DNA of 64,000 nt from sequence record MW630116.1; one strand, given 5' to 3'. This document shows positions 28,268 through 38,854 of this stretch, in pieces. Under the pieces are notes generated by a model. That model was not told the origin of the DNA, ran no database searches, and worked only from the letters and a program-made list of their open reading frames with translations. Positions within the stretch are counted from its first letter, which is position 1; each line of letters opens with the position of its first letter. This DNA is from Escherichia phage vB_EcoM-ZQ3. The position numbers and the translations under genes were made by a program.

Positions 28268-28561
28268 CTATTTTATAAAGACTTTTGACGAGGCCTGAGA
28301 AACAGTATCCCCGCATGAAATTGGGTCAGCCATTTGAACAGCCTTTTTACCGGTGACGTATACTTTAGATGTACGAGGTTCAGTAACACCTCCATGAGTC
28401 TCGTATGGTTTTTTAATTTCTGTATGAGGTGTTATTTGGTCTCCTGCCACAAGAACAGGAATACCGCCGGTGAATACTTTAGATTGGGAAGCATTTATTA
28501 CAGTAGGAGGCCATGCTTCATGACCTGTTGTAACGCACTTGTCGTAACTTAAGCCAGACAT
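28268..28561 (-). CDS. 5.4: baseplate spike tip PAAR-like protein gp5.4
   Basis: 97 aa from [11 protein letters not shown]; matches recalled T4 gp5.4; GAGG RBS. Confidence 0.85.
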
Positions 28562-28563
28562 TT

Positions 28564-29079
28564 TCACGGCCTCACATAAACATAGTTTCGTAATTGTTGA
28601 GCCCATTTGCTCCAATTTCCTACTATAGTTTTTGTATAAACCTTAGTAAGAGTTTTTTGTACTGGAGCCGGTGGAGGTTCTGTACCAGAGGCACTTCTAG
28701 AATCGCCTGATGAACTTTCTTCTTGGTAGTTATAAATCATTTCAACCGTATAACTAAACACTTTACGAAGATTCTGAGGAGCTCTCCACAAATATAACTG
28801 TGTGGATTCATCTTTTGGTAAATCATCCCATGAAGATGCGGTTTCAAAATCGTCATTTAATCGGTATTTCAATGCATCTGAAGAAAAGCTAAACACACTT
28901 TCATATGTTCCATATAAACGATTACCATCTACCGTAATGCCTTGTGTCGGTTCATAATCTGTTATATTTATTGACACTAAAGTTTCGGTTGTTTCTAACT
29001 GTGGAGTAAAAAGGACGTCAATAGACGCCCCTTCCATGTCTTCTCCTAAGTCGGTATTTAAAGGAAGTATATTAGCCAA
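28564..29079 (-). CDS. conserved protein between genes 5 and 5.4 (gp5.1-like)
   Basis: 171 aa ORF in the 5.1 position; assignment by synteny only. Confidence 0.55.
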
Positions 29080-29935
29080 TTACTGAATTCTCCAATGGTG
29101 TAAATTTATAATCACATTTTTTCAATGCTTTTAAAATTGCGTTATAACTTACATCCGGTAGATTATGTTCAATTGCTTTTTCTCTAAACCATTTATATTT
29201 CTGCGGATGAGGTTTTCCCAAATCCTCCCAAAGTTTTTTGACTTTTTCAATACTAATCCAAGGTTCAACTGATCTTAGTTTTTTATTTCTAGTATCTAAT
29301 CTTGATTTTCTTATTAAAGGATTATTCCAGGATTTTTTCGTTCCTTCTATTTTTCCTGGATGATTAATTAATTTGTTTCTATATTCATCGGATTTCCATA
29401 AAGATTTGACAGTATTAGAAATACGAATTTTTAATGTGGGATCATTTTCAAAAGCAGTTTTCATCGCATTACTCATTTTCTTTCGATATTCCGATTCCGA
29501 ACATCTAAGTTTATTAATTTTTGAAATTTTTTCTGAAAATTCTTTTGTAGATTTTCCTTTTGCCAAAGCTTTAAGTTGAGTTTCTCGATACTCAGGATTA
29601 GACCACATTCGTTTTAAATCGTTTGAAGAAAATCCATCTCCACCGTCTTTTATATTAACACACTGGCCTGTTTTTCTATATTCAGATATCCAAAATTTTT
29701 CTCTTTCATTTAAAACATCGAGTGTTGAAACGAATTCGATAATTTCGAAATCTATAGCATAGCCTGGTTTGTTTTTAATCTTTTGTATATAATCCCCGCT
29801 TCCTACGTAATTATCATCCTCTAGATTAAAATATCTGGATTCATGCTTTCCTATATATATTCGAACCAACCCCTTTGGGTTGGTTACTGTTGATTTATAA
29901 ATGTAACGGAATTGTATGGTTTTGGATTTCTTCAT
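29072..29935 (-). CDS. GIY-YIG homing endonuclease (Seg-like), free-standing mobile gene
   Basis: 287 aa; N-terminal YIY...YIGK...EREKFWI GIY-YIG core as in T4 Seg proteins; C-terminal repeated basic helix motifs (WSNPEYR, WKSDEYR, NUMOD-like). Confidence 0.8.
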   Translation of the reverse strand: MKKSKTIQFRYIYKSTVTNPKGLVRIYIGKHESRYFNLEDDNYVGSGDYIQKIKNKPGYAIDFEIIEFVSTLDVLNEREKFWISEYRKTGQCVNIKDGGDGFSSNDLKRMWSNPEYRETQLKALAKGKSTKEFSEKISKINKLRCSESEYRKKMSNAMKTAFENDPTLKIRISNTVKSLWKSDEYRNKLINHPGKIEGTKKSWNNPLIRKSRLDTRNKKLRSVEPWISIEKVKKLWEDLGKPHPQKYKWFREKAIEHNLPDVSYNAILKALKKCDYKFTPLENSVIG

Positions 29936-29951
29936 AATTTACCTCTGGAAT

Positions 29952-29959
29952 TATTTATA
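29952..29959 (-). promoter_or_regulatory. late promoter TATAAATA upstream of homing endonuclease gene
   Basis: exact TATAAATA on minus strand 17-24 nt upstream of endonuclease ATG, overlapping gene 5 stop. Confidence 0.4.
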
Positions 29960-31691
29960 ACCCGACATCCACACGGCTACCATCAATTGTGTATTGTCCT
30001 GAAGCTACTGAGCTCATTGTAGACATTGTTTCCGCCCAATCCCCAGCAACAGTCATATCAACATTACCATTAACAGTCCATTTAACGTTTCCGTTGACTG
30101 TGTAATCATGATTCCCTTCGACCTGAGTTTTAGCATCGCCTTTAACAAGAATATCTGCATTTCCGTCAACAACTATTTTGATATTACCCTTAACGTAAAG
30201 AGTTCCATCGCCTTCAACAGTTTTAGATTGGTTACCACGAATAAAGATTGTATCATTGCCGTCTATTTGATGGAGGCGGTCTGCCATGTTATAATATATT
30301 TCATTAGCACCAACGTTAACAAGCTTATCGCCAGAAATCAAGAAGTTCCCATCGCCATTAGTGATGTCAAAAAGGTCTTCTACAGTTTTACGAGTACGTC
30401 GCCCAGACGGAGAAACTTCCTCATATGACCCTGTTGGATGAACTAAGCGATAACGTTCATTACCTGGAGTATCGTCAAATTCTTGGATATGACCGCTTTC
30501 TGTTTCCATAGCATGAACGTATGGATACTCACCACGATAACTTGATTCAGGTTCTTTAAAAAGGATACGTGAATCTAACGGAACAGGAGGACCAGCTGGG
30601 TCTTCTGGATCGGTATTTCTAGTAACTAAATCGGCACCAACTCCTGGTGAAGGTGGTGTTTTAACAGGAACGCCATATGATTCCATGTTACCGGTTAAAA
30701 TAATTGTTGTTACACGTGAAGCACGCCCTTTAGTCTGTTGGAACCATAATGAATCACGTCCGGATTTGTATGCGGTTTTCCAATCACCTGTGGCCATTGC
30801 TTTAAGCATAGTATTGAATTTTGCTACACCACCAACGCCCATCTGGAAGCACATGTTTTCTAATGCCATTTGGCGAGATCTGTTCATTTTAGCATAAACA
30901 GGACCTACTTTAGAATTAGAACGAATGTCTTTCTGCATCTTAGCAAGGTCCTTCTCAAATAACGCTGTTGCTTCTTCTAATGTAATAGTTCCCGGATTTC
31001 CTGTTACTTCACGCCCTACTTGATCAGATAACAATTTATTAATTCGAGACATATCTCGGGTTTTTTCCATTACTATAAGATGTCCAATACCTACTGTAGG
31101 ATACCCGAGATGGTCCCAATACACTTTATCACGAAGACCTTCGTCACGACGTAACATTTCTGTTATTGTAAAATTAGGGTCATCATCTTCTGGAATATTT
31201 GCTAAATCTGTATCGTCTGGGTTTATACCATAATCCAAGTTGTTATCTTGAATTACGTTAGAGTTCGAATAATAACCAGCTTCACCACCTTGGTTTAGTA
31301 CGTTCGTATCATTACCTAAACGTCGCGGATACTGGCCTGTCGGGTCTGAAAAACCTTCAAGTCTATTAGGCTTTTCACGTACTATTCCGCCATATGTACC
31401 AAGTACAATCCCGTTTGTTTTCCATTTGTCTAAGAAATGACCATATACTCGAGTTCCTTCAACAGGACCTGTAACAGAACCACCAATACCTGACATTGAT
31501 GCAGACGTAATAGGTTGAATAACAGTCATCCATGGAAGTTTTTCTGTAGGAATACCTTGTACATCACCTTGTGTTCTCTGCGCCGGATGAAGACCAACGA
31601 CTCGAACTCGAACTCGCCCTTGTTTTAATGGGTCCATTCTGTCCTCGACAACACCCACGAACCAATTAAGGCTACTGCTAATCATTTCCAT
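29955..31691 (-). CDS. 5: baseplate hub subunit and tail lysozyme gp5
   Basis: 578 aa; central lysozyme domain (LRRDEGLRDKVYWD...GIGHLI) and C-terminal beta-helix VxGxxxxxV repeats. Confidence 0.95.
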   Translation of the reverse strand: MEMISSSLNWFVGVVEDRMDPLKQGRVRVRVVGLHPAQRTQGDVQGIPTEKLPWMTVIQPITSASMSGIGGSVTGPVEGTRVYGHFLDKWKTNGIVLGTYGGIVREKPNRLEGFSDPTGQYPRRLGNDTNVLNQGGEAGYYSNSNVIQDNNLDYGINPDDTDLANIPEDDDPNFTITEMLRRDEGLRDKVYWDHLGYPTVGIGHLIVMEKTRDMSRINKLLSDQVGREVTGNPGTITLEEATALFEKDLAKMQKDIRSNSKVGPVYAKMNRSRQMALENMCFQMGVGGVAKFNTMLKAMATGDWKTAYKSGRDSLWFQQTKGRASRVTTIILTGNMESYGVPVKTPPSPGVGADLVTRNTDPEDPAGPPVPLDSRILFKEPESSYRGEYPYVHAMETESGHIQEFDDTPGNERYRLVHPTGSYEEVSPSGRRTRKTVEDLFDITNGDGNFLISGDKLVNVGANEIYYNMADRLHQIDGNDTIFIRGNQSKTVEGDGTLYVKGNIKIVVDGNADILVKGDAKTQVEGNHDYTVNGNVKWTVNGNVDMTVAGDWAETMSTMSSVASGQYTIDGSRVDVGL

Positions 31692-32266
31692 TATGCAATC
31701 TCCATCTCACGAATCAAATCTGTGATAAACGAGTTTATATCTTCTTTTGCAACAATTTTTATTTTACGAAGTTTTTCATTATCTAATACTGCCGCTTCAT
31801 AAGTATCTACTGCAGCTAAAGGTCCTTTATATTGCGGATACTTACGAGCTTCATCACCTTTATCGTACCACACTAAAGGCTCGTCCGGATATGAAACCAA
31901 ATTGTAAAATTTCTCACGGTTTTCATTAATATGATAAAGAATTTGGTCGCCGCCAGCATTAGCATATTTCTGAATAGACGCTTGATATGCTGCTTCCTGA
32001 GATGTAATCCAACCATAATACGGATCATAGTTGTCATTACACATCAAAAGGACCCAGTATAATTGAGGATTGCCATAAATTATATTTGCTAGTTCTTCAG
32101 GACGCGGAGAGCCTTTAATATAATAAGAACGTAATCTATAATTGGCAGCAACACGCTTAAAGTACTCTTTATAGTTACGAAATATGTCTGTCATAGGAAT
32201 AGTAGGTGCGTTCTTATTAACTGTTTTAGCACTATATCCTATTGGGTCGAAGAATGTAAATAACAA
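31691..32266 (-). CDS. 53: baseplate wedge protein gp53
   Basis: 191 aa; synteny next to gene 5. Confidence 0.85.
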   Translation of the reverse strand: MLFTFFDPIGYSAKTVNKNAPTIPMTDIFRNYKEYFKRVAANYRLRSYYIKGSPRPEELANIIYGNPQLYWVLLMCNDNYDPYYGWITSQEAAYQASIQKYANAGGDQILYHINENREKFYNLVSYPDEPLVWYDKGDEARKYPQYKGPLAAVDTYEAAVLDNEKLRKIKIVAKEDINSFITDLIREMEIA

Positions 32267-32293
32267 GATAGTCTCCTTCCAATATGAAATTGG

Positions 32294-32301
32294 TATAAAT
32301 A
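32294..32301 (+). promoter_or_regulatory. late promoter TATAAATA for gene 4
   Basis: exact TATAAATA 27 nt upstream of gene 4 ATG. Confidence 0.5.
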
Positions 32302-32308
32302 ATAATAC

Positions 32309-32316
32309 TATTTATA
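32309..32316 (-). promoter_or_regulatory. late promoter TATAAATA for gene 53 (divergent)
   Basis: exact TATAAATA on minus strand about 43 nt upstream of gene 53 ATG. Confidence 0.45.
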
Positions 32317-32327
32317 AGGAGGACAAC

Positions 32328-32777
32328 ATGGCCTACTCTGGTAAATGGGTCCCAAAAAATTTAAAAAAATACCGTGGAGACCATACCAAAATAACGTATC
32401 GTTCAAACTGGGAAAAATTCTTTTTCGAATGGTTGGATAAAAATCCAGAAATTATTGCATGGGGTAGTGAAACAGCAGTAATTCCATATTTTTGTAATGC
32501 TGAAGGTAAGAAACGTCGATACTATATGGACATATGGATGAAAGATGCATCAGGTCAAGAGTTCTTTGTAGAAATAAAACCAAAGAAAGAAACTCAACCA
32601 CCTATTAAGCCTGTAAATCTTACGACCGCAGCAAAGAAACGTTATATGAATGAAATATATACCTGGTCTGTGAACTGTGATAAATGGAAAGCTGCCTCAG
32701 CTGTTGCTGAAAAGAGAAATATAAAATTCCGAGTTCTAACCGAAGATGGTCTTAGAAAACTCGGATACAAGGGGTAA
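32328..32777 (+). CDS. 4: head completion protein gp4
   Basis: 149 aa from [11 protein letters not shown] with AAGGAGG RBS; longer ORF start overlapping gene 53 rejected. Confidence 0.88.
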
Positions 32778-32779
32778 TT

Positions 32780-33601
32780 ATGAGCATATTCAAAATTATA
32801 TCTGAAGGCGTACAAGCCCCTAAGATTGCTCAGTCTATGAATGAAAGAAAATGGATTGAGATAGGATTAGAATACAAGAAAGCTAAAGAGAAAGGAATCA
32901 CTGCAAAAGCATTTGCAGAATCAAAAGGAATAAAATACTCGTCGTTTACATCTGCAATGTCTAGATATGCATCATCTATTAAGACTGCACAGAAAATTGA
33001 AACGCTTGAATCTAAACCTAAAAATAAACTCAATAAGCAAGAACGTCAACTTCTGATGATAAACTCGTTTCGCAGTTCAATACGAGAAAAGATTAGAAAT
33101 GAAGGCGCAGCAGTAAACAACAAATCATCTAAATGGTTTATTGAAACAATTAAGAAAAGTGTAAAAGGTCATAAAGTAGTCAAGCCTACTCCAGGCAAAA
33201 TTTATACTTACGTGTATGATGCTAAACATAAAGATACTCTGCCGTATTGGGACAGATATCCTTTGATTATTTATTTAGGATTGGGTAAACATAATTTGAT
33301 GTATGGGTTAAACTTGCACTATATCCCACCTAAAGCGCGACAACAGTTTCTTGAAGAATTGCTGAAGCAATATGCTAGCACAACTACTATTACTAATAAC
33401 ACGAAGTTGAAGATAGACTGGAGCAAGGTGAAAGGATTTCAAGGTGCTGACAAAATGATTAAAGCATATCTGCCAGGTCACATTAGAGGAACAATAACAG
33501 AAATAGCTCCCAAAGACTGGGCTAACATAATCATGTTACCTACCCAGCAGTTTATGTCAAAAGGAAAACGTTTCTCTGCGAATACTGTTTGGAAATCTTA
33601 A
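32780..33601 (+). CDS. 2: DNA end protector protein gp2
   Basis: 273 aa; length and position as T4 gp2. Confidence 0.88.
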
Positions 33602-38114: not shown

Positions 38115-38188
38115 TAATTTAAACGAAGTAAATTAAGTGCTCTATCCAAATAATAAATACTCCTATATTTTATAGGAGATAATTGGTA

Positions 38189-38854
38189 ATGAGCATTTGT
38201 AAACATTGTAATATGGAATTTGATATTTCTAATAAACCTAAAGGATGGATGGCTAACCACACTAGATGGTGTAAATCCAACCCTAAATTGGAATTGTATA
38301 AAGAAAGTTCTAAATCAGCCATTGCAGCAATGAATAAAGCACGTATAGCTTCAGGTAATTTAAACCAGTATGTTGTATCTAAAAAGACTGGTGTCCCTGT
38401 AGTAATTTCGGAAGAGACTAGACAAAAATTGTCAGCCGCTTCATTAGGTAGAGAACACTCTGAGGAATCTAGAATAAAAATATCTAATGCTCGGAAAAAA
38501 TGGTTGAATGAAAACCCTGATAAACATCCTTGGAAGAAAAATACAAAATTTAAATCTGTGCCTTGTGAATTTTTGAAATCTAAATTAATAGAAAACGGAA
38601 TTTCATTTATTGAAGAATACCAACCGGTTAAAAACCGAGCGTATTGCACGGATATTGCTTTAATAGATAAAAAGATTATTATTGAAGTTAATGGAAACCA
38701 ACATTACTCCAATCCTAAGAAAAAGATTTTGGCCCCTTATTATAAAGAACGCCATGATATTATAAAATCATTAGGATGGGAAATATATGAACTTCATTAT
38801 GCTGAAGTTTATAAAGAAGATATTGTAAATAATTTAATTGCCTCTATAGTGTAA
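38189..38854 (+). CDS. putative homing endonuclease (Zn-finger / NUMOD3-like / C-terminal Vsr-DUF559-like nuclease domain)
   Basis: 222 aa from MSICKHC; CxxC...H..C N-terminus, NUMOD3-like ETRQKLSAASLGREHSEESRIKISNARKKW, C-terminal IIEVNGNQHY...D...GWEIYEL; located in tRNA cluster like T4 segB. Confidence 0.6.
   Translation: MSICKHCNMEFDISNKPKGWMANHTRWCKSNPKLELYKESSKSAIAAMNKARIASGNLNQYVVSKKTGVPVVISEETRQKLSAASLGREHSEESRIKISNARKKWLNENPDKHPWKKNTKFKSVPCEFLKSKLIENGISFIEEYQPVKNRAYCTDIALIDKKIIIEVNGNQHYSNPKKKILAPYYKERHDIIKSLGWEIYELHYAEVYKEDIVNNLIASIV

Follow-up and report, generated by a model that had tools for sequence, protein, structure and literature searches.

A putative free-standing GIY-YIG homing endonuclease gene on a cassette at the end of baseplate gene 5 in Escherichia phage vB_EcoM-ZQ3

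The insertion at the end of gene 5

The locus described here lies in a stretch of 64,000 nucleotides (nt) from Escherichia phage vB_EcoM-ZQ3 (sequence record MW630116.1), which is called the window below and to which all positions refer. At its centre is an open reading frame (ORF) of 287 amino acids (aa) on the minus strand (29072..29935, with ATG at 29935 and TAA at 29074..29072), which we take as a free-standing homing endonuclease gene (HEG) from the ORF itself, a match to phrog_314, a family profile and its ratio of nonsynonymous to synonymous substitution rates (dN/dS). Upstream of it on the minus strand is gene 5, the baseplate hub and tail lysozyme gene (29955..31691; Pfam Gp5_OB at 4e-62, lysozyme and Gp5_C repeats), and downstream is the gp5.1 homologue (28564..29079, minus strand; phrog_1168 at 1e-71 and PF26906 Phage_T4_Y07E), which starts at TTG 29079 or at ATG 29037. 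This arrangement is the one described in a first-pass annotation made by a model from the sequence alone, and the strings FRYIYKS, VRIYIGKHES and NEREKFWISEY that it had quoted are all present in the translation. The HEG is not embedded in an intron: both gp5 and 5.1 are complete ORFs, and an Rfam scan of 28300-30600 gave no match at E<=1 and no group I intron. The backbone of the window is that of a Mosigvirus, with ~96% identity to HX01 and JS09 across 20 kb. The most likely explanation of the data, to which we give a probability of about 0.85, is that this HX01/JS09-like Mosigvirus genome carries a free-standing Seg-type GIY-YIG HEG on a cassette of ~0.9 kb that is placed 9 nt before the end of gene 5; in phages without the HEG the target would presumably be this gene's 3' end.

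Comparison of empty and occupied sites gives the anatomy of the insertion. At the empty site of T4, gene 5 ends as ...GATGG ATCGAGGATTGAC ATT GGC TAA TATACTTCC. Occupied sites have in their left part TAGCCGTGTGGAT GTC GGG TTA TAA, which is a replacement gp5 tail, followed by ATAATTCCAGAGGTAAATT, and in their right part ATG ... HEG ... TCA GTA followed by ATT GGC TAA TATACTTCC. The insertion had been placed between genes 5 and 5.1, which is correct for the order of the genes but is not strictly intergenic, the cassette of ~0.9 kb being inserted inside the last gene 5 codons, 9 nt before the gene ends. The original last two gene 5 codons and stop, ATT GGC TAA (29072..29080, minus strand), now belong to the HEG in the same frame as in the T4 gp5 terminus ATTGGCTAATATACTTCC, and the HEG reads in frame over the right junction while the native stop/start junction with gene 5.1 stays intact. 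The sequence past the junction, TTG GCT AAT ATA CTT CC, is native to T-even phages, and the T4 gp5 stop overlaps the same TTG.

On the left side gene 5 has received a recoded substitute 3' end (GGT AGC CGT GTG GAT GTC GGG TTA TAA; 29955..29981, minus strand), so that the gp5 tail before the stop reads GSRVDVGL in carriers versus GSRIDIG in phages without the cassette. The five codons ahead of the junction are heavily recoded, for example Ser from TCG to AGC and Arg from AGG to CGT, and when T4 is mapped against an allele that has lost the HEG (a scar allele, see below) there are 7 differences in 10 nt in the recoded patch versus 0-1 per 20 nt in the flanks. The GGTAGCCGT block is linked to the HEG in each of the three backbones that carry it and hence travels with the cassette. 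The recoded gp5 tail is presumed, from its sequence, to make the carrier's own site uncuttable, and it is the obvious candidate for self-immunity.

The window follows HX01 as far as CAATACAC, resembles T-even phages from there through the cassette to TTGGCTAATAT, and returns to HX01-like sequence at TTTAAATACC. In the alignments the left donor-type, T-even-like tract covers 29936..29988 (minus strand) and the Mosigvirus backbone resumes upstream of CAATACAC; the right donor-type tract is TTGGCTAATAT (29069..29079, minus strand), which is of T-even type and is replaced by ATGGCACAAAT in HX01, and the crossover falls in ACTTCC. Mosigvirus empty sites, as in HX01 (L002), have 11 extra nt (ATATGGCACAA) compared to T4. 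With these 11 nt the gp5 stop and the start of the long form of 5.1 are separate in Mosigvirus, whereas they overlap in T4. Two 11-mers at the HX01 gp5/5.1 junction resemble a diverged tandem repeat.

The cassette carries a T4-type late promoter, TATAAATA (29952..29959, minus strand), which overlaps the gp5 stop TAA at 29957..29955, and the exact copy that had been reported over the gene 5 stop was found there, running from 29959 to 29952. Exact TATAAATA occurs 18 times in the window versus 7.6 expected from shuffles, and since all 18 copies are on whichever strand is coding at that point, they behave like genuine late promoters of T4 type. The motif is missing from the T4 and HX01 empty sites and is kept in all three diverged HEG lineages. 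A Shine-Dalgarno sequence, GAGG (29942..29945, minus strand), can be read 6 nt ahead of the ATG. A hairpin around the promoter and Shine-Dalgarno sequence that would sequester the ribosome-binding site, as in I-TevI, was not found, the fold being no better than that of shuffles (z 0.02), and a scan for sigma-70 promoters and terminators stayed at chance level except for a hairpin at 29864-29885 that is taken up below.

Whether the HEG overlaps gene 5.1 by 8 nt, as had been claimed, depends on the start of 5.1: the overlap holds if 5.1 starts at TTG 29079 and is absent if it starts at ATG 29037. In the annotation of T4 and F2 the start is the ATG corresponding to 29037, which is preceded by AGGAG. 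The 14-codon extension from TTG is open in one frame only, its own, and the changes in it between phages are of synonymous type, and on these grounds the long form of gp5.1 is plausible but unproven. The 8-nt overlap of the HEG with 5.1 is a copy of the native overlap of gp5 with 5.1 in T4. The idea that the insertion switched the 5.1 start from ATG to TTG was dropped, since TTG GCT AAT is already there at the empty T4 site.

The encoded protein and its lineages

By its sequence the HEG protein is a Seg-type GIY-YIG homing endonuclease, with cleavage as its predicted activity. The GIY-YIG catalytic domain (aa 9-101; 29633..29911, minus strand) carries Y13, Y27, E79 and N94, which are invariant in a 120-sequence family alignment and are aligned to Y6, Y17, E75 and N90 of I-TevI, and hhalign of this family alignment against the I-TevI catalytic domain gave a probability of 96.5% and an E-value of 8.6e-10. 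The protein matches phrog_314 'homing endonuclease' in PHROGs (7e-20), and a profile made from its first relatives matched 3693 proteins, many of them with NUMOD3, SegE_GIY-YIG or GIY-YIG domains. The AlphaFold (AF2) model has a predicted local distance difference test (pLDDT) score of ~95 across the N-terminal 100 residues, the GIY-YIG alpha/beta fold with its three-stranded sheet and GIY and YIG strands is present by fold comparison, and Foldseek against viral models (BFVD) returned dozens of Seg-like endonucleases with E-values from 1e-13 to 1e-5. A phmmer search against PDB gave a single marginal match to I-TevI (E 0.2). Some GenBank and UniRef copies of the gene are already labelled 'homing endonuclease' or 'Seg-like, GIY-YIG family'.

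The nuclease domain is followed by a helical linker or repeat region (aa 104-223; 29267..29626, minus strand), which is delimited by the AF2 helices and by phrog_22215, covering aa 106-223. It contains repeated W-x-x-P-E-Y-R and K-I-S helical motifs and is presumed from the model, which keeps a pLDDT of ~90 up to aa 190, to be an extended DNA-binding segment. The last 60 residues are modelled as a lower-confidence three-helix unit with a weak winged-helix resemblance (module at aa 229-287; 29075..29251, minus strand), possibly a helix-turn-helix. The NUMOD-like C-terminal repeats that had been proposed were not borne out: no NUMOD3 or other NUMOD domain was matched by Pfam in the HEG protein, and what is found there are the helical W-x-x-P-E-Y-R and K-I-S repeats. 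Relatives of the protein in the profile search do carry NUMOD3.

Three lineages of the HEG were found, namely, the window type, the T6 type (86% aa identity) and a metagenomic type (L015; 74% aa identity). Between the three, the proportion of synonymous differences (pS) is 0.62-0.84, which is saturated, the proportion of nonsynonymous differences (pN) is 0.02-0.17, and dN/dS is ~0.04-0.11 in every domain; from these low ratios it follows that the protein has been kept functional. The pS of the N-terminal half, 0.84, is above the usual saturation level. The divergence between the window-type and T6-type HEGs is uneven along the gene, identity being 63-80% over nt 1-450 and 88-98% over nt 450-864, with averages against the T6 type (L003) of ~73% for the N-terminal half and ~95% for the C-terminal half and a breakpoint near nt 450. 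The N-terminal half groups the T6 type with L015 and the C-terminal half groups the window type with the T6 type. These conflicting three-taxon groupings of the sequences indicate that recombination occurred inside the HEG between the nuclease module and the DNA-binding module.

Distribution, transfer and loss

HEG DNA was found in 34 of 50,697 phage records: F2 (two records), two CEV1 contigs, and 30 records of T6 type that include T6, ACG-C40, the PYPS2T group and vB_SsoM_113. When the flanks were used as the query, 506 Tequatrovirus-type records were recovered, of which 32 are occupied and the others span 963 bp versus 1851 bp, and ~150 Mosigvirus-type records matched the window flanks, F2 alone among them being occupied. 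Thus ~620 of ~650 related records (~470 Tequatrovirus-type and ~150 Mosigvirus-type) have an untouched site. The first-pass annotation had proposed comparing the 5/5.1 junction with relatives lacking the insert; this comparison gave precise empty alleles in HX01 and T4, and far from all relatives carrying the ORF, the 34 occupied records stand against ~620 empty ones. The same cassette is present at the same position in a third backbone, which is metagenomic (L015). Protein and pattern scans of IMG/VR returned one genome, already known, and a pattern scan of JGI metagenomes gave no match. Among the carriers, F2 (L001 / NC_054913) is entered as Tequatrovirus efftwo, yet across gp5-gp7 it shares 97-98% identity with Mosigvirus HX01 and only ~77% with T6-type phages.

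The junctions of the carriers differ in length on the left side. Eight carrier contigs (L005-L012) were compared with the window, and five of the eight share its short left tract of ~36 nt, while F2, L010 and L012 have a longer left tract of ~75 nt; the right junction is identical in all the Mosigvirus carriers compared. In a comparison of eight carriers from Mosigvirus, 0.09% of HEG positions differ, versus 2.4% in the upstream and 1.7% in the downstream flank. It counts against this figure that the loci were chosen for an identical protein, so that only synonymous differences could show, but roughly a dozen of these would be expected despite that selection and 0-2 were seen. Judged from these alignments the element appears to have crossed from T-even-type phages into Mosigvirus. 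The hybrid junctions, the variable tracts, the low diversity of the HEG and the deletion scars described next agree with the earlier description of the HEG as mobile and, as sequence comparisons go, make the evidence for mobility strong.

A search with the left junction showed that four genomes, 215Ecol030PP, ESh36, LF73P3 and LF73P1, keep the recoded gp5 tail without the HEG. These scar alleles (L020, L021, L022 and L023, locus position ~1200-1270) retain the last 32 nt of the HEG and have 37 extra nt compared to naive sites. All four read ...GGTTTATAAAT|TTACATCATTAGAGAATTCAACAATTGGCTAA, which is a clean deletion between two 8-bp TTATAAAT direct repeats. In the window, copy 1 is in the promoter (29953..29960, minus strand) and is one end-point of the deletion in the scars, and copy 2 is in the D-Y-K-F codons near the C-terminus of the HEG (29104..29111, minus strand) and is the other end-point. 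It is likely from these alleles that the HEG is occasionally lost by deletion between the two repeats. The scars of 215Ecol030PP, ESh36 and LF73P3 have a T6-type left end; that of LF73P1 has a window-type left end and a T6-type right end, which are the same two types as in the HEG mosaic. Four gene calls in the protein cluster of P0001 (P0124, P0126, P0129 and P0131), on contigs of up to 123 kb, look frameshifted or truncated, the first three of them being frameshifted or N-terminally truncated in appearance. These calls may be decaying copies or assembly errors.

Other endonuclease-like genes were seen in and near the window. A second such ORF, 223 aa long and on the plus strand at 38183-38851, matches the Seg family profile weakly (1e-6); NUMOD3 scores 18.9 bits in it, and its C-terminal part gives a DUF559/RAP (Vsr-like) signal. 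In HX01 a gene annotated as 'homing endonuclease' follows gene 4 directly (L002 6505-7124), where the window has gene 2 (32780-33601), and the site after gene 4 is another polymorphic endonuclease site among close relatives. The product of gene 4 itself (head completion; 32184-32777, plus strand) has, in the window and in L005-L010, a Pfam match to Tn7_TnsA-like_N in precomputed tables; its called start varies, giving 197 aa in the window and F2 and 149 aa in the others, and the long form overlaps the start of the divergent gene 53.

Mechanism, alternatives and known endonucleases

Based on what is known of Seg and I-TevI biology (PMC2988022, PMC2330249), from which the following steps are taken, we propose how the cassette would spread. 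In a mixed infection the enzyme would be expressed late, both by read-through from gene 5 and from its own promoter. Its C-terminal helical or helix-turn-helix part would bind the junction of the gene 5 end and 5.1 in a co-infecting phage without the cassette, and the N-terminal GIY-YIG domain would cut both DNA strands no more than a few tens of bp from the naive gp5 stop. A cut near that stop is the most likely in view of the short tracts and of the recoded patch, which is co-inherited every time. Recombination repair would then copy the cassette and short flanks from the carrier genome, which would result in localized marker exclusion, while the carrier's own site, interrupted by the insert and recoded in its left half, would be protected.

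Several observations weigh against the proposal that the HEG is an active homing endonuclease gene of Seg type. Pfam and NCBIfam scans of the HEG protein gave no significant match; PF01541 scored 12.2 bits, below the cut-off of 22.6, and PF19835 was not reported. The GIY-YIG core named in the first-pass annotation therefore stays below the threshold of these databases and is upheld by the profile and fold comparisons. The catalytic Arg and Glu had been named as the residues to look for on alignment, and here the result is divided: the Glu is present as the invariant E79 (I-TevI E75), but Arg27 of I-TevI has no alignable counterpart, the residues DFEKRW being opposite a gap; between aa 33 and 48, where I-TevI carries Arg27, the model lacks a helix, with R34 nearby. 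The helix with Arg27 is likewise missing from SegB, SegC and SegE of T4, all of which share G-(K/V)-H-...-Y-x-G-S-G, and since these three are listed as active in a review table of 2010 (PMC2988022) the missing counterpart need not count against activity. Past aa 190 the pLDDT falls to 55-72, and the DNA-binding assignment is that of a medium- to low-confidence model. Literature searches turned up no paper that describes this HEG. Finally, the Mosigvirus empty site is the T-even site with the 11-nt insertion and several substitutions, so that its cleavage is not assured, and the crossovers into Mosigvirus fall in only 6-8 nt of identity. Given this short identity and the extra 11 nt, the cassette may first have entered Mosigvirus by a rare illegitimate recombination, not by homing, and then have spread among the phages of that genus.

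A further suggestion, which we regard as unlikely, is that the cassette is not only a selfish gene but also a module that organises transcription of the baseplate operon. It comes from an inverted repeat in HEG codons 17-24 (29864..29885), which forms a perfect stem of 9 bp and a loop of 4 nt. The repeat encodes TNPKGLV, an insertion of 5 aa in the GIY-YIG beta-hairpin that is specific to the clade. The hairpin folds at ~-14 kcal/mol in all lineages and scores as terminator-like on the plus strand, and over the 3 lineages 97% of the cells of the stem are paired, 3 pairs being changed on both sides by synonymous changes. Such a hairpin, if it is a selected nucleic-acid element, could be a terminator of antisense early transcripts entering gene 5/oriE, or a signal for mRNA stability or translation, and together with the donated late promoter and the preserved 5.1 stop/start junction it leads to the idea of a transcription-organising module. 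Self-correction of a quasi-palindrome could also have caused the paired changes in the stem.

It is improbable that the HEG is an inactive or domesticated relic, kept for its late promoter, for translational coupling of 5.1-5.4-6 or as a DNA-binding regulator only. The low Pfam score and the lack of an alignable Arg27 would fit a relic, as would the late promoter, which arrives with the cassette and is not in the empty sites, and I-TevI is known to act also as a repressor, its operator and its late promoter being overlapped (PMC2988022). However, the catalytic Tyr, Tyr, Glu and Asn are invariant and the nuclease domain is under strong purifying selection, with a pN of 0.08-0.17 versus a pS of 0.62-0.84; moreover, the diversity of the HEG is ~20-fold below that of the flanks on diverged backbones, and ~95% of the relatives manage without the cassette. 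We give somewhat less credence still to a nuclease that is active but is selected mainly for something other than its own homing, such as cutting the genomes of competitors or driving recombination or segmental amplification that helps the phage. In 2026 SegB of T6 was reported to promote amplification of anti-defence loci via microhomology (PMC13096335), and the cassette is flanked by 8-bp microhomologies that have recombined; yet no amplified or duplicated arrangement of the locus was seen in the genomes examined, and the empty, occupied and scar alleles together with co-conversion at the junctions are what plain homing predicts. The least probable explanation, that the HEG is ancestral and immobile and became patchy by repeated deletion only, has the existing deletion alleles in its favour but fails on the common empty alleles (T4, HX01), which have neither the recoded gp5 tail nor the 32-nt HEG remnant, on the T-even-type junctions within a Mosigvirus backbone, and on the near identity of the HEG on backbones ~2% apart.

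If the HEG homes as we propose, the locus has some practical interest. Public genomes hold naive, occupied, hybrid and scar alleles together with transfer across genera and internal recombination at the level of domains, and with so complete an allele record target mapping and homing assays are simple to design. In phage cocktails one would expect a carrier to replace the gene 5-5.1 region of relatives without the HEG when they infect together. The C-terminal tip of the cell-puncturing spike is encoded in this region and would change from ...IDIG to ...VDVGL.

For intronless homing and marker exclusion the T4-type phages are the classic system, and we know of no homing endonuclease described at the end of gene 5. 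Judged by sequence, the closest characterised proteins appear to be SegB and SegE of T4, which have the same N-terminal motif set (YxYK.TN...IYIG.H...Y.GSG...KYG...E..(W)I...YN.K.GG.G) without the Arg27 helix and the same layout of a nuclease with an extended C-terminal part, and which are also free-standing between phage genes; by tblastn the HEG is 31% identical to genes annotated as segB and 24% to genes annotated as segE in T4-like phages. It differs from them in its place at the gene 5 end, theirs being at the tRNA cluster or uvsW, so that the presumed targets differ; in being 65-80 aa longer, with its own late promoter and no detectable NUMOD3; and in two insertions, the 5-aa palindrome-encoded one in the GIY-YIG hairpin and one of 4 aa before Y-x-GSG. 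SegC of T4 is a GIY-YIG Seg protein in the same small region, segC being directly after gene 5.1. That the HEG is the orthologue of T4 segC was rejected, since segC is after 5.1 (5.1/5.3) and codes for 140 aa with 23% identity and the 5/5.1 junction of T4 is empty. The window has no gene at the segC site. Endonuclease genes are present on both sides of 5.1 in some phages. One of these is T4_ev151, which has a 196-aa homing endonuclease between 5.1 and 5.4, at the segC site (L024 3932-4522), in addition to the gene 5/5.1 HEG; gene 5.1 is thus flanked by two insertion hot spots.

I-TevI of the T4 td intron matches the HEG protein in catalytic fold and residues, in its two-part design and in a late promoter immediately before the ORF. 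The I-TevI promoter overlaps a homing-site-like operator (PMC2988022), and that of the HEG overlaps the recoded copy of the presumed target. Unlike I-TevI, the HEG has no intron, no Arg27 helix, no Zn finger, no recognisable NUMOD or helix-turn-helix Pfam domain and no hairpin sequestering the ribosome-binding site. The biology expected for the HEG is, by analogy, that of SegF and SegG, in whose intronless homing a neighbouring conserved gene is cut in HEG-free relatives, the flanks are co-converted and polymorphisms make the carrier resistant (PMC2988022). SegG has a distant cleavage site (PMC2988022), whereas the tracts of the HEG are short (<=~36-75 nt on the left and <=17 nt on the right), which suggests that it would cut near the insertion point. 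In contrast to SegF and SegG, the HEG cassette also rebuilds the end of its target gene and borrows its stop codon. The HEG is an uncharacterised member of a well-known class at an unstudied site.

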